A DNA stretch of 64,000 bases from Methanomassiliicoccaceae archaeon (lineage in GTDB: Archaea > Thermoplasmatota > Thermoplasmata > Methanomassiliicoccales > UBA472): contig CAWGZX010000003.1 in assembly GCA_963827135.1 (NCBI GenBank), forward strand, positions 1,784 to 65,783, given 5' to 3'. Shown in pieces: positions 31,107-64,000 of the stretch. The translations under genes were made by a program, and so were the position numbers. A model generated the notes under the pieces. The model did not search any database. It was not told where the DNA came from and saw only the letters and a list, made by a program, of their open reading frames with translations. Position 1 is the stretch's first letter. Every line of letters begins with the position of its first letter.

Positions 31107-31125
31107 TGTAGCTACATCAGCTACA
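31107..31125. promoter_or_regulatory. Perfect 7-5-7 inverted repeat, candidate operator in the divergent tes / trmB-like promoter region
   Basis: TGTAGCT-ACATC-AGCTACA lies between a TAAATTTAATA TATA-like element (31092-31102) and the ATG at 31135. Confidence 0.4.
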
Positions 31126-31134
31126 ATCGAATCT

Positions 31135-44363: not shown

Positions 44364-44566
44364 GCCTCTGGCATCTGGACGTCGAATGACACCAGTTAGC
44401 AAGGGTTAAATATCATCATTTCACTACTCAGCAACACCGATTGAGGATAGCGATGAGCGCCCGTGGCAACATCCAGAATATGCTTTTGCGCTTGCTTCTA
44501 GGTTCATTGCTATAGACTCACCGGTCGACCTGGGCTTGACGTCCGTGTCGGACTGAGGTGAATGGA

Positions 44567-46168: not shown

Positions 46169-46261
46169 GGTGCCCCAACATGCCAGCAAAGAAAGGTAAG
46201 ACCATATCGGAGAAGATACTGTCCAACAAGTCTGAAGCTCGATGCCTTTGCCGGGGACATA

Positions 46262-47446: not shown

Positions 47447-47449
47447 GCC

Positions 47450-47947
47450 ATGAAGGAATTACTGAAAGGAAAGGTGTGGCGCTTCGGGGACCACGTGGAC
47501 ACGGACCAGATCATTCCAGCGGAGAGGCTGCTCTCCGAGCTGAACGACAGGTTGGGGGAGTTCGCCTTCGAGAAGGTCAGGCCAGGCATGGCCGCCGATG
47601 TGGCGAAGGGAGACATCATCGTCGCAGGGCGCAACTTCGGATGCGGATCGAGCAGGGAGCACGCGCCGAGGGCGTTGCTGCAGGCGGGATTCTCCTGCGT
47701 GGTGGCGGAGAGCTACGCGCGAATATTCTATAGGAACTGTATCAATGTCGGGCTGCTGCCCATCGAGTGCAGGATCGAGGCCGATGAGGGGGACGCGCTC
47801 ACCATCGACCTCAAGGACGGGATGATCCGCAATGAGACCAAGGGCAAGGAATGGCCCTTCGCGCCCTTCCCGGCGTTCGTCAAGGAGCTAATCGACAAGG
47901 GTGGACTGATGGCTAAGATCAAGGAGGCCAAGAGATGTACAAAGTAG
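47450..47947 (+). CDS. leuD: 3-isopropylmalate dehydratase small subunit
   Basis: 165 aa. [26 protein letters not shown]. Confidence 0.9.
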
Positions 47948-51506: not shown

Positions 51507-52448
51507 GTGATCGATTTGGGGATTTACACCTCGAGGAACAAACTGATGACATTGGAGGCCGCCGCCGCCTTGGTAAAGGACGGAGATAAGGTGGCGATCG
51601 GTGGTGGGCTATGTTTACGTGAGCCAATCGCCATGTTGCGCGAGCTCACTCGCCAAGGTAAGAAGAACCTGCATTTCTGTGGGACGGCGCATGGTTTCGA
51701 CGTGGACTTCTCCTGCGGCGCGGGGATCGTTGGCACCGCGGAGGAGACGCACGTGTCCTTCGAACAGGACTTCGGCCTGGCGCTCAACTATAGGCGCGCC
51801 TGCGAGTCTGGCCAGGTGAAGATCCACGAGAACTGCTGCAACTCAATCATCCAGCAGTTCCGAGCGGCCGCCTATGGGATCCCTTTCATGCCCATCATGA
51901 GCGCCAAGGGCAGCGAAGAGACTTTGCTGCATCCTGAGTTCAAGCACATTATCTGCCCGTTCACTGGTAACGACCTGATACTCGTACCAGCCCTGATCCC
52001 GGACGTGGCGATCGTCCATGCCCAGAAGGCGGACATCCATGGCAACCTCAGGATCGAGCAGCCATACGTCGCGGACCTGCTCATGATCAGGGCTTCGAAG
52101 AACGTCATCGTGACCGCCGAGGAGATCATCCCCGAGGAGGAGATGATCAAGCTCGGGCCGAACGTCCCCTACTACGAGGTGGCGCATGTTGTGCACGTTC
52201 CCTGGGGAGCGCACCCGACCAGCTGCTATCCGTACTATGCGTACGACCGGGAGCACATATCCCAATACTATAAGATCACGCAGGAAGGCCCGGAAGCCTT
52301 CAAGTCAAAGTACCTTGACAAATACGTGTTTGGCGTGAAGAGCCAGGCTGAGTACATCGAGCTGATGGGCGGGAGCGAGAGACAGAAGAGGCTTGCCTCT
52401 TGGAAGAATGGCCGCGAAGCATGGATGGAGTTGTATAACTATGAGTGA
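51507..52448 (+). CDS. CoA-transferase subunit A (glutaconate CoA-transferase GctA-like)
   Basis: LEAAAALVKDGDKVAIGGG N-terminus typical of family I CoA-transferase alpha subunits. GTG start is uncertain. Confidence 0.7.
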   Translation: MIDLGIYTSRNKLMTLEAAAALVKDGDKVAIGGGLCLREPIAMLRELTRQGKKNLHFCGTAHGFDVDFSCGAGIVGTAEETHVSFEQDFGLALNYRRACESGQVKIHENCCNSIIQQFRAAAYGIPFMPIMSAKGSEETLLHPEFKHIICPFTGNDLILVPALIPDVAIVHAQKADIHGNLRIEQPYVADLLMIRASKNVIVTAEEIIPEEEMIKLGPNVPYYEVAHVVHVPWGAHPTSCYPYYAYDREHISQYYKITQEGPEAFKSKYLDKYVFGVKSQAEYIELMGGSERQKRLASWKNGREAWMELYNYE

Positions 52449-53283
52449 GAAATTCAAGGCAACCGTCGACGAGCTGTTCGTCTATAATGTGGCTAGGACG
52501 ATCAAAGACAGCACCTTAGCGTTCCACGGTGTATCATCGCCTATACCGATGGTGGCCATGTACTTCGCCAAGCTGACGCACGCCAAGGACATGGTTTACG
52601 TGGGAGGCGTTACGAGCGCCATCGACCCCAACCCGCCTTTCTTCCCGACCACCACCAATGACTGGACCATGATGCAGAATCGGACGGCGATGATCACCAT
52701 CGACAAGCTGTTCGACATGGCCCAGAAAGGTGAGCTCCATCGATCCTTCTTCAGCGGAGCCCAGGTCGACAAGTTTGGCAACCAGAACGTAACCATGATC
52801 GGGCGGCCAGGAAAGGTCAAGATCAAGCTGCCAGGGGGCGCGGGCGGATGCAACCTGTCAGGCGACTGCATCAATTACACCATCTGGACCTCCAGGCACC
52901 GAGCGCCGGCGAAAGGCGACAAGAGGATCTTCACCCTCGTGGACAAGTGCGACTTCGTGACCAACGTCGGCCACGTGACACCGTTCGGCACCAGGGAGCA
53001 GCTGAGGTTAGTGGGGAAGGGACCTGATTGGCTAGTGACCGAGCTGGGAGTGTTCGACTTCGACCCAGAGAGCAAGATCCTAAGGCTCAGGTACCTCTAC
53101 CCCGACATCACCGTCGACGAGATCCTCGTGAACACGCAGTTCAAGCCGGTGATCCATCCCGAGGTAAAAGTGATGGACATGCCGACGAAGGAGGACGTGG
53201 AGCTCATGAGGAAGATCGATCCCCTGAACGTCAGGAAGAACGAGTTCCCGCCCAAGGAGCTGGAGAGGCAGTTCTTCATCTAA
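52441..53283 (+). CDS. CoA-transferase subunit B (GctB-like)
   Basis: Start MSEKFKATVDELF at ATG 52441, overlapping the subunit A stop by 8 nt. Size and LPGGAGG region are consistent with a beta subunit. Confidence 0.65.
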   Translation: MSEKFKATVDELFVYNVARTIKDSTLAFHGVSSPIPMVAMYFAKLTHAKDMVYVGGVTSAIDPNPPFFPTTTNDWTMMQNRTAMITIDKLFDMAQKGELHRSFFSGAQVDKFGNQNVTMIGRPGKVKIKLPGGAGGCNLSGDCINYTIWTSRHRAPAKGDKRIFTLVDKCDFVTNVGHVTPFGTREQLRLVGKGPDWLVTELGVFDFDPESKILRLRYLYPDITVDEILVNTQFKPVIHPEVKVMDMPTKEDVELMRKIDPLNVRKNEFPPKELERQFFI

Positions 53284-53292
53284 GGGGGACTG

Positions 53293-54705
53293 ATGGTTGA
53301 TCCGCGGATAGACGCCATATTCAACCCCAAGACCGTCGCATTGGTCGGCGCCTCGGGCGAGGAGGGGAAGATGGGGCACATCTTCGCCAAGAACCTCCTC
53401 TCGGGATATCAGGGCAAGGTGTACCTGATAAATCCTAAGGGAGGTAAGATCCTCGCTCACGACGCTTACCAATCCATCAAGGACTTGCCAGAGGCGATCG
53501 ATCTAGCTGTGATCACAATTCCGGCCAAAGCCGTTCCCGCGGCCATGAAGGAGCTGGCGGAGAAGGGGACCAAGTCTGCAGTGGTGATTACCGCGGGCTT
53601 CAGCGAGGCCGGGCCAGAAGGAAAGGCGCTGGAGCAGGCGATGATGGAAGAGGCCAACAAAGGCCACATCAAGGTCGTCGGCCCCAACTGCTTCGGCGTC
53701 TACAACTGCAACATCGGCCTGAACGCGTCCATGGGAATAGGCACCCCGGACCCAGGCGGGGATATCTCCCTGCTCACCCAGTCGGGTGCATATGGCATGG
53801 CCATCTTTACCTTCGCCACAGACAATCAGATGAGATTCGCCAAGGTCATGGCCCATGGCAACAAAGCAGGGATCGAGGACTATGAGGTCCTCAGGTACCT
53901 GGGCCATGATGCGGAGACCAAGGTCATATGCCTATTCCTAGAGTCAGTGGACAAAGGGAGGGAGTTCTTCGAGGAAGCGAAACTGGTCGCCTTGAGGAAA
54001 CCCATCATCGCCACCAAGACCGGCCGAACCGCTAGTGCCGCTCGGGCCGCGGCCTCGCACACCGCCGCCATTGCTGGTTCATTCACCGCATATGAAGCAG
54101 CTTTCAAGCAATCGGGGATCATCTTCGCTCGGAATGGTATGGACCTGGTTAACATCGCTAAGGGGGTGGATTGGCAGCCCCTCCCGAAAGGAAAGAGGGT
54201 GGGCATAATCACCAATTCAGGTGGGACTGGAGTGGAGCTGGCTGACCTTTGCGAGGAGAATGGCCTAGAGGTCCCGGAGTTCTCGAAGGGTCTGAGGGAG
54301 AACATCGAGAGCCTGATACCTGCGTACGCGAGCGCCAGGAACCCAGTGGACATGACCCCTATTTGGCCGAAGTACTCCGAGCTATATTCCAAGATCACGA
54401 GGATCTTACATGAGAGTGACGAGGTCGACATCATAGCCCCCATCGTCCTTCAAAGGGCAGCCCTGATGCCCGAAGTGTGTGCCGGATTGGCGGAAGCGGT
54501 CAATGACTGCCTATCGTCGGGATCCAAGAAGCCGACCTATGTCTGCTGGGTGTCCACCCGGGACGGTCTCAAGAACATGGACATACTCCAAAGGAAGCGT
54601 GTACCTTGCTACGACTGGCCAGAGCGAACCGCAAGAGCTGTGGGGGCTATCTCCCACTACTGCGAATTTCTGAGGTCTAGAGGTATGAAGCCTGATAGGA
54701 TGTGA
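53293..54705 (+). CDS. ADP-forming acyl-CoA synthetase, alpha subunit (CoA-binding + ligase-CoA domains)
   Basis: FNPKTVALVGASGEEGKMGH, VVITAGFSE, and the phospho-His region AASHTAAIAG. 470 aa, as in archaeal ACD alpha subunits. Confidence 0.8.
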   Translation: MVDPRIDAIFNPKTVALVGASGEEGKMGHIFAKNLLSGYQGKVYLINPKGGKILAHDAYQSIKDLPEAIDLAVITIPAKAVPAAMKELAEKGTKSAVVITAGFSEAGPEGKALEQAMMEEANKGHIKVVGPNCFGVYNCNIGLNASMGIGTPDPGGDISLLTQSGAYGMAIFTFATDNQMRFAKVMAHGNKAGIEDYEVLRYLGHDAETKVICLFLESVDKGREFFEEAKLVALRKPIIATKTGRTASAARAAASHTAAIAGSFTAYEAAFKQSGIIFARNGMDLVNIAKGVDWQPLPKGKRVGIITNSGGTGVELADLCEENGLEVPEFSKGLRENIESLIPAYASARNPVDMTPIWPKYSELYSKITRILHESDEVDIIAPIVLQRAALMPEVCAGLAEAVNDCLSSGSKKPTYVCWVSTRDGLKNMDILQRKRVPCYDWPERTARAVGAISHYCEFLRSRGMKPDRM

Positions 54706-54709
54706 GACA

Positions 54710-55399
54710 ATGAGGCCCAAGGCGTCAGAAGTGATCGAGAGAGCCCGGGCGGAAGGGAGGAGATACATCTTGGAGCCTGAGGCCAAGAAGATCCTTAGCG
54801 CCTACGACGTCCCCGTGACCAACGAGGCGATGTGCACCTCGCCCGAGGAGGCTTTGATCGTGGCGGAGAGGATAGGATATCCAGTGGCGATGAAGGTGGT
54901 ATCGCCTCAGGTGGTGCACAAGACCGAGTTCAAAGCTGTCTGCCTGAACGTACGTAACGAGAAGGACGTCTCGGAGATTTATCGTTCCTTCGAGCAAGAG
55001 TCGATGCGGGCGAACTTCGACCTCACTGGCGTGCTGGTCTCAGAGATGGCCCATGGCCAGGAGATGATCATCGGCTCGACCAAGGACCCACAGTTCGGGC
55101 ATTTGATCATGCTTGGGATGGGCGGGATATCGGTGGAGGTCTACAAGGACGTATCCTATCGTCTGGTGCCATTGAACGAACAGGACGTGAAGGATATGCT
55201 CTCCGAGATCAAGGGAGCGAAGCTACTATATGGCTTCCGAGGGAGAGAGAGGGCTAACATCCATTCCCTCACCAATGCGCTTATCAAGGTCTCCAACATG
55301 CTCATGGAGATCGCAGAGATCGCGGAAATGGACCTGAACCCCATTTTCGTTAGCCACGAGGGAGTAAAAGTAGCTGACGCTAGATTGCTTCTTTCCTGA
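54710..55399 (+). CDS. ADP-forming acyl-CoA synthetase, beta subunit (ATP-grasp)
   Basis: 229 aa. EPEAKKILSAYDVPV, GYPVAMKVVSPQVVHKTE, DLNPIF. Confidence 0.8.
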   Translation: MRPKASEVIERARAEGRRYILEPEAKKILSAYDVPVTNEAMCTSPEEALIVAERIGYPVAMKVVSPQVVHKTEFKAVCLNVRNEKDVSEIYRSFEQESMRANFDLTGVLVSEMAHGQEMIIGSTKDPQFGHLIMLGMGGISVEVYKDVSYRLVPLNEQDVKDMLSEIKGAKLLYGFRGRERANIHSLTNALIKVSNMLMEIAEIAEMDLNPIFVSHEGVKVADARLLLS

Positions 55400-55547
55400 A
55401 GGCTGCTGGGCGTTGGTTTTAATTTCATTTTCTTTGTGAAAGAATGTAGTTACAGAAACGGACTCCTTCTAGTTTACATACAAAAGTCGTGATAATTATT
55501 GAGATTTGCGATGGAAAGTGTTATAAGTACAGCACACCCAAGGGACT

Positions 55548-55580
55548 CCAGAACGACATCATTTTTTAGGTTCGTTCTGG
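55548..55580 (+). promoter_or_regulatory. 9-bp perfect inverted repeat abutting the Shine-Dalgarno of the first methyltransferase gene
   Basis: CCAGAACGA (55548-55556) / TCGTTCTGG (55572-55580) with a 15-nt T-rich spacer. The right arm runs into GGGGAGAG, 8 nt before ATG 55594. TTATAAGT lies about 25 nt upstream of the left arm. Confidence 0.35.
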
Positions 55581-55593
55581 GGAGAGAACACAT

Positions 55594-56646
55594 ATGAAAG
55601 AAATGACATCGATGGAGCGGTGGGATGCCGCTGCAAACCACGAGACTCCGGACTACGTGCCCTATTCTCTTTTTGGAGGCATATTCGAAGTGCACGGTGT
55701 TCCAGGATTGGATGTAGTAAACTACGGGGCAAGCGGCTTGAACATGGCAAAGGCCCATAAGGCCTTCTATGAAGCGGTTAAACCCGATTCAGCCTATTGC
55801 CTTTCTGATATGGGCCTGATCGTTCAGGGCTGGGGGGTTAGAATGAAGCTTCCTGACGCCCCCAACATCTGGATGGCATTAGGCAAATTCCCGGTACAAG
55901 AGCCAGGTGACTGGGAGAAGCTCGAAGTCCTTGATCCGAGGATTGATGGAAGAATGCGCCTCTATCTTGACGCGTGCAAGCTTTGGACCGACTGGTATGG
56001 CGACAAGGTTCCGATAGGAGTGTCGCTGGCCAGCCCAATCACCACGGCCACGCACGTATGCCCAATGGAAACGGTCATGATCCACATGATGACCGAGCCC
56101 GACGCTTTGAAGAAAGGTCTCAAGACCATTGAGCAAACCATAGCGGACTTCATCAACCAGTGCGAAAAGAGTGGTGCTCACTATGCTGGCTATCTAGTCA
56201 CAAGGGCCTCGAAAGAGATCACCACTGAGCAGCAGTATCGCGAGTTTGGTGCTCCCTCTGATGAATATGTCTTCAGGCACACCACATTGCAGAACTGGCC
56301 TCATATTTGCGGTGTGGAGCCGATGTTCGACCTCGTGAACGAGTGGTCGAGGAAGTACAAGCATGTCAAGGGAATATCCTGGTGGAGCGAAGGAGCTAAG
56401 CCGAATCTCAAGGAAGCCAAGGAGGGCTGGGGCAAGCAGCTATGCTTGATGTCCGGTATCGACCATACCAACACCCTCGTTAGTGGGCCTGCCAGTGCTA
56501 TCGAAGCAGAAATCGAGAGATCCTGCAAGACAGCCATGCACGGAAGCGGCCTTATCTTGGCCCCTGGCTGCGAGATTGCACCTCAAACTCCAATCGAGCA
56601 CATGAAGGTTGGACTGAGGGCTGCAAGGAAGTATGGAAAGTACTGA
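55594..56646 (+). CDS. MtaA/MtbA/MtsA-type (uroporphyrinogen decarboxylase family) corrinoid methyltransferase, copy a
   Basis: 350 aa. Zinc motif H-x-C (WPHICGVEP) plus distal Cys (LAPGCEIAP). URO-D family architecture. Confidence 0.8.
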   Translation: MKEMTSMERWDAAANHETPDYVPYSLFGGIFEVHGVPGLDVVNYGASGLNMAKAHKAFYEAVKPDSAYCLSDMGLIVQGWGVRMKLPDAPNIWMALGKFPVQEPGDWEKLEVLDPRIDGRMRLYLDACKLWTDWYGDKVPIGVSLASPITTATHVCPMETVMIHMMTEPDALKKGLKTIEQTIADFINQCEKSGAHYAGYLVTRASKEITTEQQYREFGAPSDEYVFRHTTLQNWPHICGVEPMFDLVNEWSRKYKHVKGISWWSEGAKPNLKEAKEGWGKQLCLMSGIDHTNTLVSGPASAIEAEIERSCKTAMHGSGLILAPGCEIAPQTPIEHMKVGLRAARKYGKY

Positions 56647-56700
56647 GGTGTAAAAGCACCACAAACCCTTTTTTTTACTTTCATAAAGGTGGTTCAGACT

Positions 56701-58326
56701 ATGAAGGCAGGCAGCGTCGCATACGATTTGGCAATCATAAATGCCAATGTAATAACGTTGAATAAGAAGGCACCCAAAGCTCAGGCCGTAGGCGTAATAG
56801 GGGAAAAGATAGCGTCCATTGGTACGGACGCAGAGGTCAACGCCGGCGTCGGACCTAACACCAAGGTCATTGACGCCAAGGGCAAGACGGTACTACCTGG
56901 CTTCCACGATTCACACATGCACCCACTATTAGTGGGGCATTTTGCCAATGGCGTCATTCTAAATGATGTTAAGAATGTAAAAGAGTTCCTTGTGAAAATA
57001 AAGGAGAAGGCAGATAAGACCCCCAAGGGCAAAATGATCTTAGGATCCGGTTGGAACCAGGAGCTGTGGGAGGAGCGCCGTTACCCGACCCGATGGGAAG
57101 TCGACTCCGTAGCCCCGGACAACCCTGTTTTCCTTATCCACTGGAACGCTCACATTTACTTGTGCAATAGCGTGTTGATGCGCCAGAAGGGCATCGACCG
57201 AAACACCCCCTCCCCAGATGGAGGAACCATTGAGAAAGATGCAAAAGGCGAGCCAACAGGAATCCTGCTTGAAAACGCGATCAATCTGGTAGCTCCAGGA
57301 TTCTTGGAGACCGGTGCAGGTCTGTTCTCATATGAAGAGACGAAGGAAGCGCTGCACTATTGCGCCAAGAAGGCGGCAGAATGGGGCTTGACCTCGATCG
57401 TCGACATATTGGCGGGTGATGCTCAGGTCAAGGCCTACCAGGAACTTGAAGCAGAGGGAAAGCTTCCGGTTCGCGTCAACTTCTTCCTGGGATACCAGCT
57501 ACTCGACTCGGTCATCAACCTGGGCATGATGAGCGGCTTCGGGAACAAGAAGATCCGCTTCGCCGGGATGAAGATGATTACCGATGGGTCGCTCAGCTCC
57601 CACACCGCCGCGCTCAACAAGCCATATGTGGACAAGCCTGAGACCACCGGGGTCATGAGGCTGAGCGAGGCGGAGATCAGAGATTTCGTGTTGAAGGCCA
57701 CGGCCAATGGCATCCGTGTCGACGTGCATGCATTGGGGGACAGGGCCATACACAGCCTGATCAAGATATTCCGTGAGGCCAGGGACAAGTACAAGCCCAA
57801 GGACCCGCGCTTCAAGGTATCCCACTGCATCATCATGGACAAGGAACTGGTAAAGGCGTTCGCCGAATTGAACGTCGTGGCCAACGTACAGCCCACCTTC
57901 CTGATGGCCGGACAACAGTGGATCCCCCGGCAGGTAGGCCCGGATAGGTGCAAGATGGCACACGCCTATTGCTCGTTGAAGGATGCAGGCGTGCACATGA
58001 GCTCTGGCACGGACGCCCCCATCGGCCACATGAACCCCTTGATCAACGTCTACGCATCCTCCGTGAGGAAGGATCTGAAGGGATTCCCTGAGGGATGCTG
58101 GCACCCGGAGCAGAAGATTACCGTGGACGATGCGCTGCGCATGGGGACCATCGAAGGGGCGTATGCGACCGGCGAGGAGAATGAAAAGGGAACCCTCGAG
58201 GTCGGGAAGCTCGCGGACATGGTTCTAATGTCCGGGGATCCGTTGGCCGTCAAACCCGAGACTATATTAGATATCAAGAATAATATGACGATAGTAGGTG
58301 GAAAGGTGGTCTATGTCGCGCCCTGA
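56701..58326 (+). CDS. YtcJ-like metal-dependent amidohydrolase (Amidohydro_3)
   Basis: DLAIINANVITL...VLPGFHDSHMHP (HxH metal site), and a C-terminal MSGDPL...GGKVVY typical of the family. ATG 56701 follows AAAGGTGG. Confidence 0.75.
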   Translation: MKAGSVAYDLAIINANVITLNKKAPKAQAVGVIGEKIASIGTDAEVNAGVGPNTKVIDAKGKTVLPGFHDSHMHPLLVGHFANGVILNDVKNVKEFLVKIKEKADKTPKGKMILGSGWNQELWEERRYPTRWEVDSVAPDNPVFLIHWNAHIYLCNSVLMRQKGIDRNTPSPDGGTIEKDAKGEPTGILLENAINLVAPGFLETGAGLFSYEETKEALHYCAKKAAEWGLTSIVDILAGDAQVKAYQELEAEGKLPVRVNFFLGYQLLDSVINLGMMSGFGNKKIRFAGMKMITDGSLSSHTAALNKPYVDKPETTGVMRLSEAEIRDFVLKATANGIRVDVHALGDRAIHSLIKIFREARDKYKPKDPRFKVSHCIIMDKELVKAFAELNVVANVQPTFLMAGQQWIPRQVGPDRCKMAHAYCSLKDAGVHMSSGTDAPIGHMNPLINVYASSVRKDLKGFPEGCWHPEQKITVDDALRMGTIEGAYATGEENEKGTLEVGKLADMVLMSGDPLAVKPETILDIKNNMTIVGGKVVYVAP

Positions 58327-58431
58327 AGCTCCTCCTCAGTGTCGAAACATGGACCATCACCCCATTATTATTCTCCTCTCTTCACCGAAACAATGCGGAG
58401 GGAGGAGATGACATAACAGGAGGAAAGAAAA

Positions 58432-58971
58432 ATGGCAATGGGACCTGGAGAAATCACATTGGGGCTTGTCGGGCTTTACATAGCTGGCGTCCTGATGGTC
58501 AATCTCCTCGCCTTTCAGGGGAAAGCTGATCTCAAGGACGCTGCGATATTCAACTTTTTAGTTGGCTTCCTTGCGATCTCCGTGGCCTTCTATAACTGGC
58601 TAGTGGGTGGAAGTCCTCTAGCGGCAGCGCAAGCCTTGCTGTTCGCATTCACCTACTTGTGGCTCGGTTGGGACTTTATTAAGGGGGCCAAGGACCAGAG
58701 GGCGGTGGGTTGGTACTGCTTGTTTGTGGCCATAAACGTGATTCCGTTCGCGATATACACGTTCAAGGCAGAGCTGTGGATCCTGGGCTTCAACTGGATC
58801 TTGTGGGGCTTGGCATGGTTCATGTTCTACGTGCTCCTTGCGGCTCAGAAGAACCAGTACTTCAAGCTGATGCTCGGCGTGACCTGGGTCGCGACCATAG
58901 TCCTATGGTTCTGCTCCCTAGGATGGCTCATCGGCTGGATGGACTTCGCGCAGTTCTATGGCTTCTGGTGA
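58432..58971 (+). CDS. AmiS/UreI-family amide/urea channel
   Basis: 179 aa, 6 TM. GLVGLYIAGVLMVN, NFLVGFL, LLFAFTYLW and YCLFVAINVIPFAI align by eye with H. pylori UreI as I remember it (GLVLLYVGIVLISN, NFFVGGL, LLFGFTYLY, YSLFVAINTIPAAI). AGGAGG Shine-Dalgarno. Confidence 0.75.
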   Translation: MAMGPGEITLGLVGLYIAGVLMVNLLAFQGKADLKDAAIFNFLVGFLAISVAFYNWLVGGSPLAAAQALLFAFTYLWLGWDFIKGAKDQRAVGWYCLFVAINVIPFAIYTFKAELWILGFNWILWGLAWFMFYVLLAAQKNQYFKLMLGVTWVATIVLWFCSLGWLIGWMDFAQFYGFW

Positions 58972-59063
58972 AGGCAACCCTTAAACCATTTACATTAATT
59001 CCTTTTTATAATTATAATATGGCGAAGGGCATGGGAACATCTAGCCATTCAATAAAGATAAAT

Positions 59064-59297
59064 TTATTCTGGATACTTTATATATAAATACATGCCCAGG
59101 ATAAATGAGATGACCCCCAGTATCGTCGCTCCTGATATGAGCAGCATCGAGTCCTGTAAAAACTCCTCTCCTTTTGAATAGGCATCATAGTACATTATTC
59201 CCGCCGCGGCTAGACCAAAAAGTCCAGAAGCCATCACGACGATTCCAGCATAATTCTTTCCTCGTTCCCGATCCTGTCCAGGAGAGCTTTCGTCCAC
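59064..59297 (-). CDS. Small 2-TM hypothetical protein
   Basis: 77 aa with two hydrophobic helices. It is the only opposite-strand ORF inside the methyltransferase block. Weak support. Confidence 0.35.
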   Translation of the reverse strand: MDESSPGQDRERGKNYAGIVVMASGLFGLAAAGIMYYDAYSKGEEFLQDSMLLISGATILGVISFILGMYLYIKYPE

Positions 59298-59579
59298 GGT
59301 ACTAGAATGAATCGCGCTTCTTTAAAAGTACGCGTATCGCATGGTTCATTTCAAAGGGGAGCATGAAAGCCTTAACATTCTTTTCTATAGTTAAGCCGTC
59401 AAAATACGAAATTTTACGCTGTTTTGGGTCATTCGGTCGGCTTTTTCGAAATCTCTAACCACAAATTGGCTATTTTCTTCCATAAAACCCAGATAAACGC
59501 GTAGGAAATGAAGATAGCATATTTAATGGGCGTTGAGGTTGTATTGCCACCAATAATTGTGAGGGGGCCAGGGGTAAGC

Positions 59580-60647
59580 ATGAAGCAGATGACAAGTACG
59601 CAACGGTTTGAGGCGGCTTTAAAGCACGAGACACCGGATATGGTTCCCATATCCTACTTCGCTGGAATACTTCAGCTGCATTGGGTTAAGGAGAACCTGA
59701 CTTGGAAGGACACCGTGGAATATGGAAGGAACGGCCTTAGGATGGCTCAGGTGACCAGCCACTTCCTGGATGAGGTGGGTGGCGATACTGCCTATGTGCT
59801 GTCCGATGTTGGGGAGATAGTCCAAGGCTGGGGAGTGCGGATGAAGCTACCGGACGCTCCTGATATCCACATGGCTCTAGGGAAGTTCGGTGTAAACGAG
59901 CCCGGAGACTGGGAGAAGCTGGATGTTCTGGACCCATTGATCGATGGCAGGATGCCTACCTACCTTGATGCCTGCAAGTGGCTCAAGGAGAAGTACCATG
60001 ACCGCGTGCCAATCGGGGTCGACGTACCCTCAGCGCTGACGACATCCACCCACGTAGCGCCAATGGAGACGGTGTTGATCCATATGCTCACCGAACCGGA
60101 CGCGCTCAAGAAGGGGCTTAGGACGATTGCGACGACCGTCGCTGACTTCCTAAATGCATGCGCCGACGAAGGTGCCTTCTATTCCGCATATCTGACGACA
60201 CGTGCCTCGAAGGAGATCACCACAGAGGACCAATACCGCGAATTCGGGGTCCCGTGGGATATGGAGATATTCAAGAAGACTGAGCGGCTGTACCACATAT
60301 GCCATGTTTGCGGGGTCGAGCCAATGTTCGACATCATCGCCGAGTATGCGAGGTCCACCAAGAACACAAAGGGAATTTCCTGGTGGGACAAGGGTGCCAA
60401 GCCTAACCTCAAGGAAGCGAAGGATGGCTGGGGAAAGGACCTATGCCTCATGTCTGGGATAGACCACACCAACACTCTGACCGATGGCACGCCTGAGACC
60501 ATTGACAAGGAGATTGAAGAAGCCTGCAAGATCGCCATGCCTGGCAGCGGGTTTATACTCGCGGCCGGATGCGACATCTCGCCCAAGACACCAAAGGAGA
60601 ACATGAAGGCCTACATCAAGGCCGCCCGCAAGCATGGGAAGTATTAA
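59580..60647 (+). CDS. MtaA/MtbA/MtsA-type corrinoid methyltransferase, copy b (paralog of copy a)
   Basis: Start MKQMTSTQRF parallels MKEMTSMERW of copy a. HVCGVEP and AAGCDISP zinc motif. One 54-aa block is 46/54 identical to copy a. Confidence 0.8.
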   Translation: MKQMTSTQRFEAALKHETPDMVPISYFAGILQLHWVKENLTWKDTVEYGRNGLRMAQVTSHFLDEVGGDTAYVLSDVGEIVQGWGVRMKLPDAPDIHMALGKFGVNEPGDWEKLDVLDPLIDGRMPTYLDACKWLKEKYHDRVPIGVDVPSALTTSTHVAPMETVLIHMLTEPDALKKGLRTIATTVADFLNACADEGAFYSAYLTTRASKEITTEDQYREFGVPWDMEIFKKTERLYHICHVCGVEPMFDIIAEYARSTKNTKGISWWDKGAKPNLKEAKDGWGKDLCLMSGIDHTNTLTDGTPETIDKEIEEACKIAMPGSGFILAAGCDISPKTPKENMKAYIKAARKHGKY

Positions 60648-60690
60648 TCATAAGAAAGTACGAATTACAAAAGCCGTGATTGAAGGTGAA

Positions 60691-61353
60691 ATGATGAATG
60701 ACGAACAGTACAAGAAGATATACGATTGCGTTGTGAACGGCAAGGCAGCGGAAGCCCAGAAGATCGGGGAGGAAATGAAGGCAGCTGGCATTGACAGCAA
60801 GGAGATCGGCAAGGTGCTGATCGACGCCATGAACTTGGTCGGGCATAGGTACAGGGAAAGGGAGATCGCCCTACCTCAGCTAATCCTCGCCACGCACTGC
60901 TTCAAGAAGATACTATTGCCCTACGCAGCCGACGCTAAGGGCAAGGAGGGCGTCGTGGTCATGGGAACGGTCAAGAACGACATCCACGACATCGGCAAGA
61001 ACCTGGTATGCTCGATGCTCCAGGTTTACAACTACACGGTAGTCGATCTCGGGAAGGATGTTCCCTTGGAGAAGTTCGTGAGCGAGGCGAAGAAGGTCAA
61101 CGCCAACATAATCGGCGCAGGGACCTTGCTTACTGCCACAATGCCAGAGCTCCAGGAGATCATCAACATGATGAAGGAGGCCGGCATCCGTGACAAGGTG
61201 AAATTCGCCGTCGGAGGCGCGCCCTTGACCACCACCTACGCCAAGCACATCGGGGCAGACGGTTACGCTGCCGATGCGATCCTGTCCGTGGAGATGGCCA
61301 ACCACCTGATGAAGGGAGAACAGCACTATCTGTCCGCAAGGCAGGACAAGTAG
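60691..61353 (+). CDS. B12-binding corrinoid protein (MtaC/MtbC/MtsB-like)
   Basis: N-terminal helical cap, then a Rossmann domain with DxHxxG (NDIHDIGKN), TLLTATM and VGGAPL. Start is ATG 60691 or 60694, after GAAGGTGA. Confidence 0.85.
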   Translation: MMNDEQYKKIYDCVVNGKAAEAQKIGEEMKAAGIDSKEIGKVLIDAMNLVGHRYREREIALPQLILATHCFKKILLPYAADAKGKEGVVVMGTVKNDIHDIGKNLVCSMLQVYNYTVVDLGKDVPLEKFVSEAKKVNANIIGAGTLLTATMPELQEIINMMKEAGIRDKVKFAVGGAPLTTTYAKHIGADGYAADAILSVEMANHLMKGEQHYLSARQDK

Positions 61354-61371
61354 ACTGGCGTGTGTGATTCG

Positions 61372-62418
61372 ATGAGCAAGAACTCTCAGCAAAGGGTGCA
61401 TGACGCCATCAAGCACAACCCCGTTGACCGCGTCCCGGTCAGCGGAATGGCCTGGTTCATCGGGGCCAGGGCGGGCGGCTTCGGCACCAAGGAATACGCC
61501 ACCAACGGCGAGAAGATGGCCAAGGGCCAATTGGCCTTCCATGAAAAGACGGGCGTAGATATATTGCATCCCATGTCCGACGTAGGCCAGATGTCCTCTG
61601 GGTGGGGCACAGTAATGCGCTACACCGAGGGCCTCGCCCCGATGATGGATGACTTCGCCGTCCGGGAACCGGAGGATTGGGAGAAGATGGAGGTGCTCGA
61701 CCCGAAGAAGGATGGAAGGATGCACGTCCCCATCGATGCCATATCATTGATGCGCAAGAAGGTCGGCGAGACCGTGTCGATGATGCCTTACATCCCAAGC
61801 CCGCTCACAAGCACCACCCACGTGCGGGCAATGGAAAACGTTCTCATGGACATTATCCTCAACCCAGAAGCCCTGAAGAAAGGTTTGAAGATAATTACCG
61901 AGACCACCATCCTCTACGCCGACCAGATATTCGATGCCGGGGCGGACGGGCTGTTGTATGCGCCAACCCGCGCTTCCGCCGAAATCGTCACCATCGATCA
62001 GTACGAAGAGTTCGGCGCAATCTACGATCGAAGGGTGCTCGGGGGATTGAAGAACCAGGATGGCTACAATATCCTCCATGTCTGCGGCGTCGAGCCCTTC
62101 TTCGAGCTCCTCTCTAACTACCCCAACACCGGAGGTATAAATTGGTGGGACAGGGGAAGCAACTTGAAAGTATCCGAAGCAAAAGCCAAGTGGGGGAAGA
62201 CGGTCTGCCTGGTAGCGGGAATGGACCAGACTACCACATTGATGATCGGCAAGATGGAGGACATCAGCAACGAGGTCAAGGACACCATCAATCAGGGATT
62301 CGGTGACGGCACCGGATTAATCATCGCGCCTGGTTGCGAGATATCCCCCAACACTGATTTCCAGAAGATCAAGGAAATGGTGAGAGCCGCCGAGAAATAC
62401 GGACGGAAGTTTATTTGA
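61372..62418 (+). CDS. MtaA/MtbA/MtsA-type corrinoid methyltransferase, copy c (divergent)
   Basis: 348 aa. HVCGVEP and APGCEISP zinc motif. Clearly more distant from copies a/b than they are from each other. Alternative GTG start at 61360. Confidence 0.8.
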   Translation: MSKNSQQRVHDAIKHNPVDRVPVSGMAWFIGARAGGFGTKEYATNGEKMAKGQLAFHEKTGVDILHPMSDVGQMSSGWGTVMRYTEGLAPMMDDFAVREPEDWEKMEVLDPKKDGRMHVPIDAISLMRKKVGETVSMMPYIPSPLTSTTHVRAMENVLMDIILNPEALKKGLKIITETTILYADQIFDAGADGLLYAPTRASAEIVTIDQYEEFGAIYDRRVLGGLKNQDGYNILHVCGVEPFFELLSNYPNTGGINWWDRGSNLKVSEAKAKWGKTVCLVAGMDQTTTLMIGKMEDISNEVKDTINQGFGDGTGLIIAPGCEISPNTDFQKIKEMVRAAEKYGRKFI

Positions 62419-62431
62419 AAGGAGGAAGTGA

Positions 62432-63793
62432 ATGAGCGATCTGAAAGGAATCTCAATGAAGTGCGAGCCCCCGGGACCGGAGGCTCAGAAGATAATGGAT
62501 CGGGACAAGCGCTTCATGGCCACAATGAACAAGGTCATGCCCGTGGTCGCCAAGCGCGGCAAGGGAATGTACGTCGAGGACGTGGACGGCAACGTCTACC
62601 TGGACTTCCAGTCCGGTATAGCCGTCAACAACCTGGGTCACTGCCCGCCCACCGTCGTCAAGGCGGCGCAGCAACAGCTTGAGACCCTCATCCACTTCCC
62701 TGGCATCCTGCTCTCACAGAACATGGAGGGCGCGCTGGCCGAGGAGTTGAGCGAGCTCGTCCCTGGCAACTTCGTGAAGAAGACCTACTTCTCATGCACC
62801 GGCTGCAACACCATCGACACGGCCATCAAGGTGGCAAGGTGGAGCACTGGACGGCCTAGGAACCTAGCCTTCTTCGGTTGCTTCCACGGGAAGTCCATCG
62901 GTGCCATGTCCCTCACGGCATCCAGGACCAACTACCGCAAGGGGTTCATGCCAGAGATGCCGGGCGTCATTCATGCACCATACGCCTACTGCTACCGCTG
63001 CCCCTACAAGATGGAATACCCCTCTTGCGACGTCTATTGCGCCAAGTTCATCGAGGAGGAGATCCTGACCAAGTTCATCCCGCCTGAGGAGGTCGCCGCA
63101 TTCTTCATCGAGGCGATCCAGGGGGAAGGTGGGTATATCGTCCCGCCTAAGGCCTGGCACAAGGAGATCCGCAAGATGACCGAGAAGTACGGCATCCTGT
63201 GGGTCGCGGACGAGGTCCAGAGCGGCATCGGGAGGACGGGCAAGTGGTTCGGCGTCGAGAACTTCGATGTGGTGCCGGACATCACCTGCATCGCCAAGGG
63301 CATCGCCTCTGGCCTGCCGATGAGCGCCTGCGTCTTCAACGAGAAGTACGACATCAAGCAGCCCGGAGCTCACGCCACGACCTTCGCTGGCAACCCAGTG
63401 ACGACTGCGGCCGCGCTTGCCACCTTGAAGACCATCAAGGAGGAGAAGCTGCTCGACAACGCAACCAAGATGGGCAACTACCTCCTGAAGAGGGAGGATG
63501 AGCTCAAGGACAAGTACGAGATCATCGGCGATGTGAGAGGCATTGGCCTGATGACTGCGGTGGAGATCGTCAAGGACAAGAAGTCCAAGAAGATGGACAT
63601 GGACACCAGGAACAAGATCGTCAACAGCTGCCTGAAGAAGGGCTTATTGATATTGTTCTGCGGGCCATCCTCGATAAGAATCATCCCCGCGCTCAACTGC
63701 AACCAGGAGCACATAGACAAAGCCATGGAGATCTTCGAGGCCGAGGTCAAGAGGGTCCAGGCCGAGTGCAAGGCTGCCTGCGGAACGGTTTAA
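62432..63793 (+). CDS. Class-III (omega/GABA-type) PLP aminotransferase
   Basis: 453 aa. ADEVQSGIGRTGKWF, DITCIAKGIASGLP (PLP Lys), ATTFAGNPV. AGGAGG Shine-Dalgarno 7 nt upstream. Confidence 0.85.
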   Translation: MSDLKGISMKCEPPGPEAQKIMDRDKRFMATMNKVMPVVAKRGKGMYVEDVDGNVYLDFQSGIAVNNLGHCPPTVVKAAQQQLETLIHFPGILLSQNMEGALAEELSELVPGNFVKKTYFSCTGCNTIDTAIKVARWSTGRPRNLAFFGCFHGKSIGAMSLTASRTNYRKGFMPEMPGVIHAPYAYCYRCPYKMEYPSCDVYCAKFIEEEILTKFIPPEEVAAFFIEAIQGEGGYIVPPKAWHKEIRKMTEKYGILWVADEVQSGIGRTGKWFGVENFDVVPDITCIAKGIASGLPMSACVFNEKYDIKQPGAHATTFAGNPVTTAAALATLKTIKEEKLLDNATKMGNYLLKREDELKDKYEIIGDVRGIGLMTAVEIVKDKKSKKMDMDTRNKIVNSCLKKGLLILFCGPSSIRIIPALNCNQEHIDKAMEIFEAEVKRVQAECKAACGTV

Positions 63794-63854: not shown

Positions 63855-64000
63855 TCAATCATCGCAACTAGGATCGACCTCATGTCGCTCGACCTGCTTC
63901 GGCTTCTCATCGGTCAAGCCCTTGAGCGCCCAGCGTAGCAGGGACGGTGTCACCAGGGCAGTAGCTAGTCCAATGAAGACGGCCATAGAGTAGATGTCCT
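63855..64000 (-). CDS. 3' end of an unidentified membrane-protein gene running in from the right edge
   Basis: The reverse complement reads ...DIYSMAVFIGLATALVTPSLLRWALKGLTDEKPKQVERHEVDPSCDD-stop (TGA = 63855-63857). It is too short to name. Confidence 0.3.
   Translation of the reverse strand, partial: DIYSMAVFIGLATALVTPSLLRWALKGLTDEKPKQVERHEVDPSCDD

Follow-up and report, generated by a model that had tools for sequence, protein, structure and literature searches.

In Methanosarcina, the MtsA/MtsB and MtpC/MtpA systems act on S-methyl substrates, and the methyl group ends on coenzyme M (CoM). Their methyltransferases have the URO-D fold, bind zinc through a His-Cys-Cys site and operate with a corrinoid partner. 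The gene cluster studied here has the same elements, and we propose the same use for it. A comparable set of first methyltransferase (MT1), corrinoid protein, second methyltransferase (MT2) and RACE-type activase is found in the O-demethylases, i.e., the Odm and Vdm systems of Acetobacterium dehalogenans, Dhaf_4610-4612, and MtoABCD of Methermicoccus and Archaeoglobus. Type 1 mlp clusters, described in a preprint by Kountz and Balskus (PMC10418091), also resemble our cluster. They contain several MtaA-like URO-D proteins with the His-Cys-Cys triad, together with a corrinoid protein, RACE, and accessory sulfur and amino-acid genes, and a folate methyltransferase is absent from both; a role in methyl-sulfur or methyl-selenium metabolism has been proposed for them.

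The cluster lies on the plus strand of a 64,000-nucleotide stretch of DNA (the window). Seven genes placed there by the original prediction are all present with the domains and motifs proposed, as judged by Pfam. In order, these encode the methyltransferase MT-a (55594-56646; URO-D, E = 6e-36), an amidohydrolase (56689-58326; Amidohydro_3, E = 6e-108), an AmiS/UreI channel (58432-58971; AmiS_UreI, E = 2e-29), a second methyltransferase MT-b (59580-60647, with an alternative upstream ATG at 59508; URO-D, E = 2e-41), a corrinoid protein (60634-61353; B12-binding and B12-binding_2, with the motif DIHDIG), a third methyltransferase MT-c (61360-62418, start probably 61372; URO-D, E = 2e-52) and a class-III, omega-type aminotransferase (62432-63793; Aminotran_3, E = 2e-110). 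The unit is larger than these seven genes. Four co-oriented genes lie upstream (51507-55399), encoding a pair of CoA-transferase-like (CoAT-like) subunits and a two-subunit ADP-forming acyl-CoA synthetase. The plus-strand cluster ends at a convergent Na+/H+ exchanger gene on the minus strand (63855-64000; Na_H_Exchanger in the gene call of L003), which is truncated by the window end. The lower GC content noted before (28/60 at 59641-59700) was reproduced, and the shift is small, the cluster having a value of 0.545 and the remainder of the window 0.577.

The gene set recurs in about 20 species of uncultured Methanomassiliicoccales, and it is also conserved in Bathyarchaeia and in a single divergent metagenomic cluster (L040). 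It occurs in three layouts: a compact order CoAT-ACD-MT1-CP-MT2-AH-AT; a split order in which CoAT-ACD-MTb-CP-MTc-AT is accompanied by a separate MTa-AH-AmiS; and the divergent order of L040. The amidohydrolase and aminotransferase are beside the methyltransferases in all three and AmiS in two, being absent from the compact operons. In the split clusters MT-a always adjoins the amidohydrolase, and the amidohydrolase module is present in six of the six genomes of this type from which both parts were recovered. More generally, MT-a-type genes travel with the amidohydrolase and AmiS, the channel gene having the amidohydrolase and an MT1 gene as neighbors in L010, L013, L026, L030, L040 and L041. 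The arrangement in the window is a lineage-specific insertion of the MT-a/amidohydrolase/AmiS module into an older operon, and the AT-rich spacer between AmiS and MT-b (58972-59579, neither strand, GC 0.41) is the junction. A minus-strand ORF within this spacer (59064-59297) has no Pfam match and is conserved in L010. The gap of 537-610 bp containing this antisense ORF, and another of 195 bp ahead of MT-a, make several transcripts likely in the window. In addition, a T8 tract on the plus strand (56669-56676), downstream of the MT-a stop codon and ahead of the start of the amidohydrolase gene, may, from its sequence, act weakly as an archaeal terminator or attenuator. Such gaps might be expected if a generic methyl-CoM system happened to lie next to unrelated housekeeping genes. 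We strongly disfavor this, since the linkage outlasts three rearranged layouts, spans two archaeal phyla and persists where protein identity has dropped to about 40-60% (L040), and the compact operons have internal gaps of just 0-140 bp. The suggestion that the amidohydrolase, channel and aminotransferase are functionally linked to the methyltransferases is thus borne out by the gene orders.

All three methyltransferases have an H-x-C...C zinc site, as had been predicted. It aligns with H237/C239/C316 of MtaA (being H237, C239 and C326 in MT-a), and is the same in every orthologue examined. MT-c aligns to the MtaA structure 4ay7 (1.4e-24) with the motif kept. In the phylogenetic tree the three enzymes form a novel, rare clade with 100% bootstrap, and none falls inside the clade of MtaA, MtbA, MtsA and MtpA, to which they are 19-27% identical (19-21% for MtsA). 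MT-b is an MT1-group paralogue 64% identical to MT-a, in a distinct subclade (100% bootstrap), and MT-c belongs to a separate sister group, the MT2 group (94% bootstrap). Of the three, MT-c scores highest on the MtaA, MtbA and TIGR01463 profiles. From this, and from the association of MT-a with the amidohydrolase and channel, we propose that MT-a, an MT1-group member of the URO-D superfamily, is a substrate:corrinoid S-demethylase and that MT-c is a methyl-corrinoid:thiol (CoM) methyltransferase. The triad is present in MtaA, MtbA, MtsA and MtpA and absent from OdmB, Dhaf_4610, VdmB and MtvB. A rule tying it to thiol-type substrates has been stated (PMC10418091) and is founded on few characterized enzymes. 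The presence of the triad in all three enzymes makes an S-methyl (methylthio) substrate more likely than a methoxy or N-methyl one, which narrows the substrate classes that the original prediction left side by side.

The corrinoid protein is of the short, bacterial or MtbC-like type. Its best NCBIfam matches are MtgC and MtbC, both under cut-off, and the veratrol O-demethylase protein VdmA shares 41-42% identity with the fen_33 and fen_65 orthologues (PMC10805028 supplement). Relatives carry a corrinoid activase with Fer2 and RACo domains, of RACo/AcsV type and not RamA, just past the position matching the window end. In the close relative L019, the genes after the exchanger encode another exchanger, an MtaA-like URO-D protein, an APC permease and RACo. 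Both the corrinoid protein and the activase most closely resemble bacterial O-demethylase components, and the cluster-bearing lineages inhabit wetland and lignin-rich peat and soil. We therefore considered whether a methoxylated amide or amine might be O-demethylated in a bacterial or Mto-type four-component scheme, with the methyl group passing to CoM. This seems to us improbable. One or both cysteines of the triad have been lost in the characterized URO-D O-demethylases, and the methyltransferases of the cluster, which keep both, stand outside the O-demethylase clade in the tree and have 15-18% identity to OdmB. Moreover, aromatic compounds would not get through a UreI/AmiS-type pore of this size.

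The enzymes adjoining the methyltransferases are of types that handle nitrogen compounds. The amidohydrolase is a YtcJ-like, metal-dependent protein whose ligands (HxH, K, H, H, D) are kept in 11 orthologues; the nearest structures are the uncharacterized Pyrococcus hydrolases 3icj and 3igh. The channel is of the short-loop type (103.5 bits in Pfam, where the cut-off is 25) and is homologous to the Helicobacter pylori urea channel 3ux4 (1.5e-7). The aminotransferase scores 543 bits on PRK05769 against a cut-off of 552, and among structures it matches the P. horikoshii protein 7vno best. It keeps K268, E211 and R398 of GabT, while R141 is replaced by lysine, so that the substrate might be an omega-amino acid and not a simple amine. 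An aldehyde:ferredoxin oxidoreductase (AOR) gene adjoins that of the aminotransferase in L005, L015, L039 and the Bathyarchaeia locus L036, and is missing from about half of the loci. These activities, and the AsnC/Lrp-type regulators near the cluster in relatives, would also suit an N-methyl substrate, e.g., a short amide or an amino acid methylated on nitrogen. We consider N-demethylation very improbable. The known N-demethylases are of MttB, MtmB or MtbB type, and we know of no URO-D-superfamily enzyme that demethylates nitrogen. When the remaining ORFs of the window with ≥200 amino acids were all scanned with Pfam, no MttB, MtmB or MtbB domain was found, nor MtaB or RamA, in agreement with the original prediction, and the soft His-Cys-Cys zinc site suits sulfur or selenium ligands.

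The four upstream genes bear on the fate of the carbon skeleton. CoAT-like alpha (51507-52448, plus strand; Pfam CoA_trans) resembles subunit A of the glutaconate-CoA-transferase family, with GctA 1poi, AibA 5mzw and IpdA 6coj as its best solved relatives, and is syntenic in at least 12 loci. CoAT-like beta (52393-53283, start probably near 52408) lacks the family-I catalytic glutamate. At the position of the glutamate in the SENG motif of AtoA, which is the residue mutated in AibB entries, it has glycine within the conserved motif VY[VF]GGV, and its best solved relative is AibB (2e-22), ahead of GctB (1.5e-16). Synthetase alpha (53293-54705; CoA_binding, Succ_CoA_lig, Ligase_CoA_2) scores 426 bits on TIGR02717 against a cut-off of 567, conserves the SHTAA histidine motif and is 53% identical to a fused bacterial enzyme in L046. 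Synthetase beta (54710-55399; ATP-grasp_5 in the gene call of L001) matches NCBIfam models of ADP-forming CoA ligases in their ATP-grasp portion. The pair and the synthetase are 43-57% identical (54-57% for CoAT-like alpha) to homologues in bacterial coenzyme-M epoxyethane clusters, which also hold EaCoMT-type Meth_synt_2, SDR, ALDH, DSOR and CoM-biosynthesis genes. In Methylohalobius, ethylene raises both CoA-transferase subunits, and these genes and that of the NDP-forming synthetase are predicted to finish epoxyethane oxidation to acetyl-CoA (PMC11507031); in bacteria as well, the step performed by the pair and synthetase is thus a predicted one.

If the bacterial homologues act in a pathway yielding thiol and acetyl-CoA, as predicted, the C-S bond might be cut before demethylation. 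The CoAT-like pair, an enzyme of disulfide-reductase type, or both would cleave a methylthio-acyl-CoA formed from an amide or amine to acetyl- or acryloyl-CoA and methanethiol, and the methyltransferases would act like MtsA on free methanethiol or DMS. The thiol-type zinc site, like that of MtsA, the lack of the transferase glutamate in a subunit nearest to the lyase-type AibB, and a CoA-disulfide-reductase-like (DSOR) gene inside the L040 cluster are consistent with this. We regard such release of methanethiol as unlikely. The DSOR gene is present in that cluster type only, the methyltransferases lie outside the MtsA clade at the low identity given above, and the specific tie of an MT1 paralogue to the amidohydrolase and AmiS is left unexplained.

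The DSOR-like gene of L040 and the SsuA-family sulfonate-binding protein that flanks the Bathyarchaeia version argue for sulfur-type chemistry. Bathyarchaeia have the MT1/CP/MT2/AT/AOR core and usually lack MCR, so the acceptor of MT2 need not be CoM. Methyl groups might then be shuttled between thiols, for instance to form or salvage methionine, CoM or another sulfur cofactor or to detoxify thiols, with methane not the purpose. The paralogy of MT1 and MT2, both with thiol-type sites, and the SsuA-type transporter nearby are in keeping with such salvage, as is the methyl-sulfur or methyl-selenium role proposed for similar multi-URO-D/CP/RACE mlp clusters of non-methylotrophs (PMC10418091). We give it little credence, as the synthetase, AOR, aminotransferase and amidohydrolase have a catabolic character, and the hosts, being obligate methyl-reducing methanogens, depend on a methyl donor as their energy substrate; MCR is carried by the UBA472/FEN-33 lineage (PMC6147122, PMC10805028).

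Our preferred reading, with a probability of about 0.45, is that the region belongs to a conserved cluster with a catabolic role in uncultured Methanomassiliicoccales that have MCR, in which a new corrinoid methyltransferase system is joined to enzymes processing small organosulfur compounds. The methyl groups probably come from a small amide or amine that contains sulfur, and B12 proteins would remove them. Whereas the domains, linkage, clade and zinc site are evident from the sequences, the chemical steps and the substrate are inferred, as follows. A small neutral methylthio-amide would enter through AmiS and be hydrolyzed by the Amidohydro_3 enzyme to a methylthio-carboxylic acid and ammonia. 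In parallel, a methylthio-amine would be transaminated to the aldehyde, which AOR would oxidize to the same acid with reduction of ferredoxin; this route is suggested by the adjoining aminotransferase and AOR genes. MT-a and MT-b would bind the thioether sulfur at their zinc and methylate the corrinoid protein in its Co(I) state; MT-c would move the methyl group from this protein to CoM for reduction to methane, the RACo-type activase encoded nearby holding the cobalt reduced. The remaining thiol or thioether acid could be taken through a CoA thioester by the synthetase and CoAT-like pair, ending at acetyl- or propionyl-CoA by analogy with the bacterial CoM-dependent epoxyethane pathways. Candidate substrates are 2-(methylthio)acetamide or S-methylcysteamine, or 3-(methylthio)propionamide or 3-(methylthio)propylamine. 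The 3-methylthiopropionamide suggested originally is thus one candidate among several, and the C2 skeleton fits the bacterial CoM-thioether link at least as well. Against our reading, the proposed substrates are not known as abundant in peat. Overall the earlier interpretation stands in part: the linkage is upheld and the methyltransferases lie outside the characterized clade, and the CoA genes, RACo activase, AOR and inserted layout had been overlooked. If our reading is correct, methane-forming archaea of wetlands and soils have a further food source that current surveys overlook.

As anticipated, no operon of this composition, and no account of the cluster itself, turned up in searches of the literature. 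It differs from Mts and Mtp in sequence (19-22% identity to MtsA and MtpA, and a separate, strongly supported clade), in having two dedicated paralogous methyltransferase groups in place of one bifunctional enzyme, and in using a short bacterial-type corrinoid protein and RACo where those systems have MtsB/MtpC-type proteins and RamA/RamS. The conserved amidohydrolase, channel, aminotransferase, AOR and CoA genes are likewise lacking in Mts and Mtp. The O-demethylases share the corrinoid protein and Fer2-RACo activase, but the MT1 of the cluster keeps the thiol-type triad, and its MT2 is a URO-D thiol methyltransferase rather than a pterin-binding MtrH/MeTr-type protein; an aromatic-compound transporter is absent. 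Type 1 mlp clusters are reported from bacteria and, among methanogens, from three Methanococcales genera only, Methanomassiliicoccales not being mentioned (PMC10418091); the amidohydrolase/AmiS/aminotransferase/AOR/CoA set does not figure in that account.

The epoxyethane and alkene clusters (etn/xec) of Methylohalobius crimeensis, Mycolicibacterium rhodesiae JS60 and Xanthobacter Py2 share the CoA genes and a parallel logic, in which X-CH2-CH2-S-R is converted to aldehyde, acid and CoA ester. These bacteria employ an epoxyalkane:CoM transferase, SDRs, ALDH, a 2-KPCC-like reductase and CoM-biosynthesis genes, in whose place the archaeal cluster has corrinoid methyltransferases, aminotransferase, AOR and amidohydrolase. 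Lastly, a six-helix AmiS/UreI gene also lies beside that of an amide-consuming hydrolase in the ami operon of Pseudomonas aeruginosa and with ureI of H. pylori. There the hydrolase is a nitrilase-superfamily amidase or urease, whereas here it is a YtcJ-like Amidohydro_3 enzyme and, unlike in those operons, channel and hydrolase are tied to a methyltransferase.

The cluster consists of genes on the forward strand. Seven of these, from MT-a to the aminotransferase, follow in the order MT-a (55594-56646; Pfam URO-D), an amidohydrolase (56689-58326; Amidohydro_3), a channel (58432-58971; AmiS_UreI), MT-b (59508/59580-60647; URO-D), a corrinoid protein (60634-61353; B12-binding plus B12-binding_2, with the motif DIHDIG), MT-c (61360-62418; URO-D) and a class-III aminotransferase (62432-63793; Aminotran_3), where MT-a, MT-b and MT-c are methyltransferases. 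The open reading frames and Pfam matches agree exactly with the gene order, strand, domains and coordinates of the original prediction. This had also seen an H-x-C...C site in each methyltransferase, and the triad indeed aligns with the zinc ligands of MtaA in all three. Pfam scans of the other window ORFs of at least 200 aa gave no MtaB, MttB/MtmB/MtbB or RamA, as had been claimed, and revealed housekeeping genes (leu genes, seryl-tRNA synthetase, citrate synthase and transporters). The unit is, however, larger than the seven genes first noted. Four co-oriented CoA genes lie directly upstream: two CoA_trans-family subunits (51507-53283, +; the glutaconate-CoA-transferase-like, or CoAT-like, pair), followed by both subunits, alpha and beta, of an ADP-forming acyl-CoA synthetase (ACD; 53293-55399, +).

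A gap of 195 bp precedes MT-a in the window, a T8 tract (56669-56676) follows the stop codon of MT-a, ahead of the amidohydrolase, and the AmiS-MT-b spacer of 537-610 bp is AT-rich and contains a small antisense ORF that is conserved. These features make several transcripts likely in the window. The T8 tract may act as an archaeal terminator or attenuator within the module. On manual inspection TATA-like strings were found in the AmiS/MT-b spacer only. The antisense ORF (59064-59297, - strand) encodes 77 aa (56 aa in the gene call), has no Pfam match, and is kept at 4941-5174 in L010, a locus of the closest relative. An Rfam scan of the window found no riboswitch near the cluster, returning one tRNA only. 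Beyond the 3′ end of the aminotransferase gene the strand switches to a convergent Na+/H+ exchanger.

Other parts of the window gave some further observations. The region 14000-24000 has lower GC (0.47-0.54). It encodes an MMPL/RND-type transporter (18159-21350) and a radical SAM protein, along with an ORF without Pfam match. An ORF of 1443 aa (31881-36212, +), with a lamin-tail domain as its only Pfam match, is preceded by the gene for a TrmB-family regulator (31048-31884). A radical SAM protein with an HMPTM zinc-ribbon domain (29504-31069, -), linked to methanopterin methylation, is consistent with an archaeal host of methanogen lineage.

We scanned one genome per GTDB species with a pattern derived from the MT-a/b alignment, and obtained 32 loci. 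About 28 of these belong to some 20 uncultured species of Methanomassiliicoccales/Thermoplasmata, and one to the Bathyarchaeia. The Methanomassiliicoccales/Thermoplasmata carriers come from peat, fen, wetland, soil and the subsurface; all carriers are MAGs, with no cultured strain among the scan matches. Layouts were established from tblastn, ORF-family maps and look-ups of more distant homologues, and are of three types. The compact type 1 has the order CoAT-a, CoAT-b, ACD-a, ACD-b, MT1, corrinoid protein, MT2, amidohydrolase, aminotransferase, with gaps of 0-140 bp (L005, L006, L008, L011, L012, L015, L028 and L039); MT1 denotes the group of MT-a and MT-b, and MT2 that of MT-c. In the split type 2 the same operon lacks the amidohydrolase (L016, L020, L022, L023), and MT-a, amidohydrolase and AmiS form a module at a second site in the genome (L013, L014, L026, L030). 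All six genomes whose contigs permitted the comparison had the two parts. Type 2 also includes the window and a relative 93% identical to it (L010, L019); here the module has entered the operon between ACD-b and MT-b. The divergent type 3 (L040/L041) has 40-60% identity and a reshuffled gene order, with CoAT-like genes, ACD, three URO-D genes, corrinoid protein, aminotransferase, AmiS, amidohydrolase, the corrinoid activase RACo and a CoA-disulfide-reductase-like flavoprotein. The flavoprotein scores 478 bits against TIGR03385 (cut-off 579), and in L040 it lies with a DUF6951 protein between the aminotransferase and the second methyltransferase (6203-7977). AsnC/Lrp regulators flank many copies of the cluster.

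The Bathyarchaeia copy (L036) keeps MT1, an aldehyde:ferredoxin oxidoreductase (AOR) adjoining it, aminotransferase, corrinoid protein and MT2, and lacks the amidohydrolase and the CoAT-like pair; a partial ACD-beta-like gene some 4 kb away is its only ACD part. Two NMT1/SsuA-type ABC transporters flank this core (1902-5564 and 16248-18793), with a glutamate dehydrogenase gene nearby. One of them passes the SsuA_fam model: its binding protein reaches 164.3 bits, where the cut-off is 163.5.

The cluster genes thus stay linked across three layouts and about 20 species, far beyond chance. The original prediction had proposed a synteny search, and had counted accessory genes not syntenic elsewhere as evidence against itself; the linkage answers this point. 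With the synteny against it, chance adjacency of the accessory genes is the least credible explanation that we have considered. Leucine-biosynthesis-type genes (LeuA-like, aconitase-type and Iso_dh; 44558-49047) stand immediately upstream of the cluster in the window, and this neighbourhood is common to L016, which lacks the module insertion. The insertion of MT-a, amidohydrolase and AmiS is thereby dated to the lineage of the window. A low-GC spot had been pointed out earlier; the count of 28 in 60 is correct, but the shift is small, the cluster lying barely below the rest (0.545 versus 0.577). Given this small shift and the leu neighbourhood common to L016, a horizontal-transfer island is unsupported.

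The three methyltransferases have the URO-D fold (Pfam) with the zinc triad at MtaA H237/C239/C316, and MtaA (4ay7) is their sole solved relative. None reaches the cut-off of the MtaA model (NF040654, 400 bits; MT-a 86, MT-b 90, MT-c 118 bits) or the MtbA model (NF041608, 600 bits; 44, 57 and 92 bits respectively). MT-a and MT-b are 64% identical, and each is about 40% identical to MT-c. Identities are 19-27% to MtaA, MtbA, MtsA and MtpA, and 15-18% to OdmB. Reference sequences were taken from the supplement of Ellenbogen et al. (PMC10805028). A distance-based neighbor-joining tree (numpy, 200 bootstraps) was built with 13 references, a set without Mlp, CmuA and full-length MtsD/F/H. In this tree the cluster enzymes form a clade of their own (100% bootstrap), divided into an MT1 group (MT-a, MT-b and the Bathyarchaeia MT1; 99%) and an MT2 group (MT-c and the Bathyarchaeia MT2; 94%). 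MtaA, MtbA, MtsA and MtpA form a separate clade (89%) and the O-demethylases another (100%). The phylogeny proposed in the original prediction therefore places the methyltransferases outside the characterized MtaA/MtbA/MtsA/MtpA clade. The new clade is small, since among 1.84 billion cluster representatives an exhaustive phmmer search matched only 21 at E ≤1e-30.

The zinc positions read His-Cys-Cys in all of the cluster enzymes, as in thiol methyltransferases. The same positions are H-S-gap in OdmB and Dhaf_4610, H-C-N in VdmB and F/Y-E-G in MtvB. Kountz and Balskus (PMC10418091) have stated His-Cys-Cys as the rule that separates S/Se from O substrates in this superfamily. Removal of a methyl group from nitrogen has no known precedent in the URO-D fold, and we regard it as most improbable. 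MT-c has the highest scores of the three against the MtaA, MtbA and TIGR01463 profiles, and MT-a-type genes travel with the amidohydrolase; from these two observations we infer that MT-a and MT-b act on the substrate side, and MT-c on the thiol (CoM) side. The nearest outgroup methyltransferases (28-32% identity; L048 625-2691 and L049 6642-11020) adjoin an ornithine-cyclodeaminase/mu-crystallin gene, with an M20 peptidase nearby and, in L049, also an octopine dehydrogenase. No corrinoid protein was found near them, and their neighbors gave no clue to the substrate. The bathyarchaeial lignin O-demethylase 'MtgB' was rejected as a relative; it has about 300 aa and no homology to known MT1 enzymes (PMC10989822).

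The corrinoid protein is of the short type. Its best profiles are MtgC and MtbC, both under cut-off, and MtaC scores about 90 bits. In the tables of Ellenbogen et al. (PMC10805028), the corrinoid orthologues of fen_33 and fen_65 have VdmA as best match (41-42% identity), and a RACo gene is 35% identical to the activating enzyme of D. hafniense. A VdmA-like carrier and an O-demethylase-like activase are thus bacterial-style proteins paired with thiol-type methyltransferases. These two similarities speak for O-demethylation; the zinc triad and the tree, however, contradict it, and we consider it improbable. The 64 kb window holds no RACo-type activase. RACo (Fer2, RACo_linker, Raco_middle and RACo_C_ter) adjoins the cluster in L005, L012, L015, L016, L019, L022, L031, L039 and L040; it is convergent to the aminotransferase in nine loci and has AcsV as best NCBIfam match. 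Its gene in the closest relative is about 5.5 kb past the point where the window stops. From the relatives we infer that the organism of the window has both the activase and AOR. In L019, RACo is co-oriented with an amino-acid permease of the APC family and with a fourth methyltransferase of the URO-D type (7102-11208, -). This methyltransferase is MtaA-like (27% identity to MtaA; 189 bits against TIGR01463). The arrangement may point to an amino-acid-like substrate, or else to a separate system.

The amidohydrolase (Amidohydro_3, 362.8 bits) has an intact set of binuclear-metal motifs, with HxH, Lys, His, His and Asp kept in 11 orthologues. All orthologues of at least 56% identity occur within this cluster, and the closest structures are uncharacterized Pyrococcus proteins. 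D-aminoacylase, urease and triazine hydrolase gave weak partial matches only and were discarded as assignments. The next relatives (about 40% identity; L042) have an uninformative genomic context. The channel scores 103.5 bits against PF02293 (cut-off 25) and matches the UreI structure 3ux4 (E 1.5e-7); by its sequence it is a short-loop UreI homologue. The aminotransferase narrowly misses the cut-off of PRK05769 (543.1 versus 552 bits), and its best structural match is P. horikoshii 7vno (393 bits). It keeps GabT K268, the Schiff-base lysine, together with R398 and E211 of the 2-oxoglutarate switch, and has Lys in place of R141. AOR lies between the aminotransferase and RACo in L005, L015 and L039. 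Together the two enzymes read as a putative conversion of a primary amine via the aldehyde to the acid.

The CoA genes are the most informative lead. The CoAT-like beta subunit is nearer to AibB than to GctB, and AibB is a decarboxylase. The glutamate of the SENG motif of AtoA is replaced by Gly both in the window and in L039, and by Ser in L040; this position is the mutated one in AibB entries. Bacterial homologues have Ala, Gly or Glu there, the glutamate being absent from the beta subunit annotated as 'CoA-transferase' in most of the bacterial loci L045-L047. The alignment to AtoA is distant; the beta subunit probably lacks the family I catalytic glutamate, and the pair is probably not a classical transferase. 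The synthetase shows the features of NDP-forming acyl-CoA synthetases, namely the conserved histidine motif and the domains CoA_binding, Succ_CoA_lig and ATP-grasp_5, and does not reach the cut-off of TIGR02717 (426 versus 567 bits).

The CoAT-like alpha subunit has many bacterial homologues of 53-57% identity. Three bacterial contexts of the pair were analyzed, in Rhodocyclaceae, Thermodesulfobacteriota and Ktedonobacteraceae. A fused NDP-forming acyl-CoA synthetase accompanies the pair in two of the three, and the L046 enzyme shares 53% and 44% identity with its two counterparts in the window. The contexts carry Meth_synt_2 proteins, a family that includes the epoxyalkane:CoM transferases, SDRs (a pair in two contexts), an aldehyde dehydrogenase (in two of the three), a Pyr_redox_2 disulfide oxidoreductase (522 aa where complete), and ComA, Lyase_1 and PALP genes resembling those of bacterial CoM biosynthesis. 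This is the layout of a coenzyme-M epoxide pathway, and the CoA module of the archaeal cluster is homologous to that of such CoM-thioether pathways. The loci L045-L047 are bacterial MAGs with etn/xec-like CoM clusters, including an apparently anaerobic Thermodesulfobacteriota; no alkene monooxygenase was found within 7 kb of these clusters. [quoted passage not shown] The bacterial route runs from HO-CH2CH2-S-CoM through the aldehyde and the acid or CoA ester to acetyl-CoA and the thiol. The archaeal set parallels it, from H2N-CH2-...-S-R to the aldehyde (aminotransferase), the acid (AOR) and the CoA ester (ACD and CoAT-like pair).

Our preferred reading, to which we give a probability of about 45%, is that a small methylthio compound would be used as both amide and amine. 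The amide would enter through AmiS and be hydrolyzed, and the amine would be transaminated and its aldehyde oxidized, to yield the same methylthio-carboxylic acid. MT-a/b would transfer the methyl group of this acid to the Co(I) corrinoid protein, and MT-c would pass it to CoM for MCR, with RACo repairing oxidized cobalt. The remaining thiol acid would be activated and processed as its CoA thioester. C2 substrates (methylthio-acetamide, S-methylcysteamine) would fit by the parallel with the bacterial pathway, and C3 substrates (3-methylthiopropionamide, or 3-methylthiopropylamine leading to MMPA) by the known methanogen chemistry through MtpA. It is less likely, though the best placed of the alternatives, that C-S cleavage comes first and that the methyltransferases act on released methanethiol. 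Thiol methylation or salvage, to which the Bathyarchaeia copy and the analogy with the mlp clusters of Kountz and Balskus lend some weight, is in our view no more probable than O-demethylation. A more far-reaching proposal, which we hold to be very unlikely, is a self-contained methanogenic catabolism, maybe H2-independent, that would draw methyl groups, reducing power (from AOR and transamination) and acetyl-CoA from a small thioether amide or amine. There the homology with the epoxyethane pathway would make CoM-thioether acids such as carboxymethyl-CoM true intermediates, so that the zinc/corrinoid methyltransferases would move or accept an alkyl group other than methyl on its way to CoM, such as carbamoylmethyl or carboxymethyl from a halo- or thio-acetamide.

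The system is real, conserved and previously unanalyzed, a variation on the corrinoid methyltransferase theme whose accessory genes are unusual and informative. Full-text literature searches turned up no account of the cluster or its accessory genes, bearing out the claim that no operon of this kind had been described. The tables of Ellenbogen et al. (PMC10805028) include the methyltransferase, corrinoid protein and activase genes of the fen_33 and fen_65 copies, entered there only as low-identity (23-28%) MtaA- or MtsA-like BLAST hits. The environmental clades are described as methanol users by Speth and Orphan (PMC6147122) and in a 2024 Genome Biology survey (PMC10804542). Peat, fens, wetlands and soils harbor abundant environmental Methanomassiliicoccales, which are viewed as H2-dependent methanol specialists (PMC10804542, PMC6147122). 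If our preferred reading is true, they would have a dedicated, conserved system for another class of methyl donor, widening the substrates that feed wetland methane and tying methane formation to organosulfur turnover. The methyltransferase clade is invisible to surveys using mtaB, mttB or mtsA as markers. The cluster also offers a handle on the unexplained 'CoA-transferase/acyl-CoA synthetase' pair of the bacterial ethene and vinyl-chloride pathways, and a test case for predicting O- versus S-specificity of URO-D methyltransferases from their zinc ligands; its components are all small soluble proteins, fit for reconstitution.

Among known systems, the cluster shares the gene content of type 1 mlp clusters, with at least two MtaA-like URO-D proteins having His-Cys-Cys, a corrinoid protein, a RACE activase (here in relatives, outside the window) and no folate methyltransferase. 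Among methanogens, the mlp preprint includes only three genera of Methanococcales, and Methanomassiliicoccales are not covered (PMC10418091). O-demethylase systems feature a pterin-binding MT II partner, and no such domain was found in the window or the related loci. In their MT I components (OdmB, VdmB, Dhaf_4610 and MtvB/MtoB) zinc-ligand cysteines give way to carboxylate or non-coordinating residues, whereas the cluster enzymes keep the full His-Cys-Cys set.
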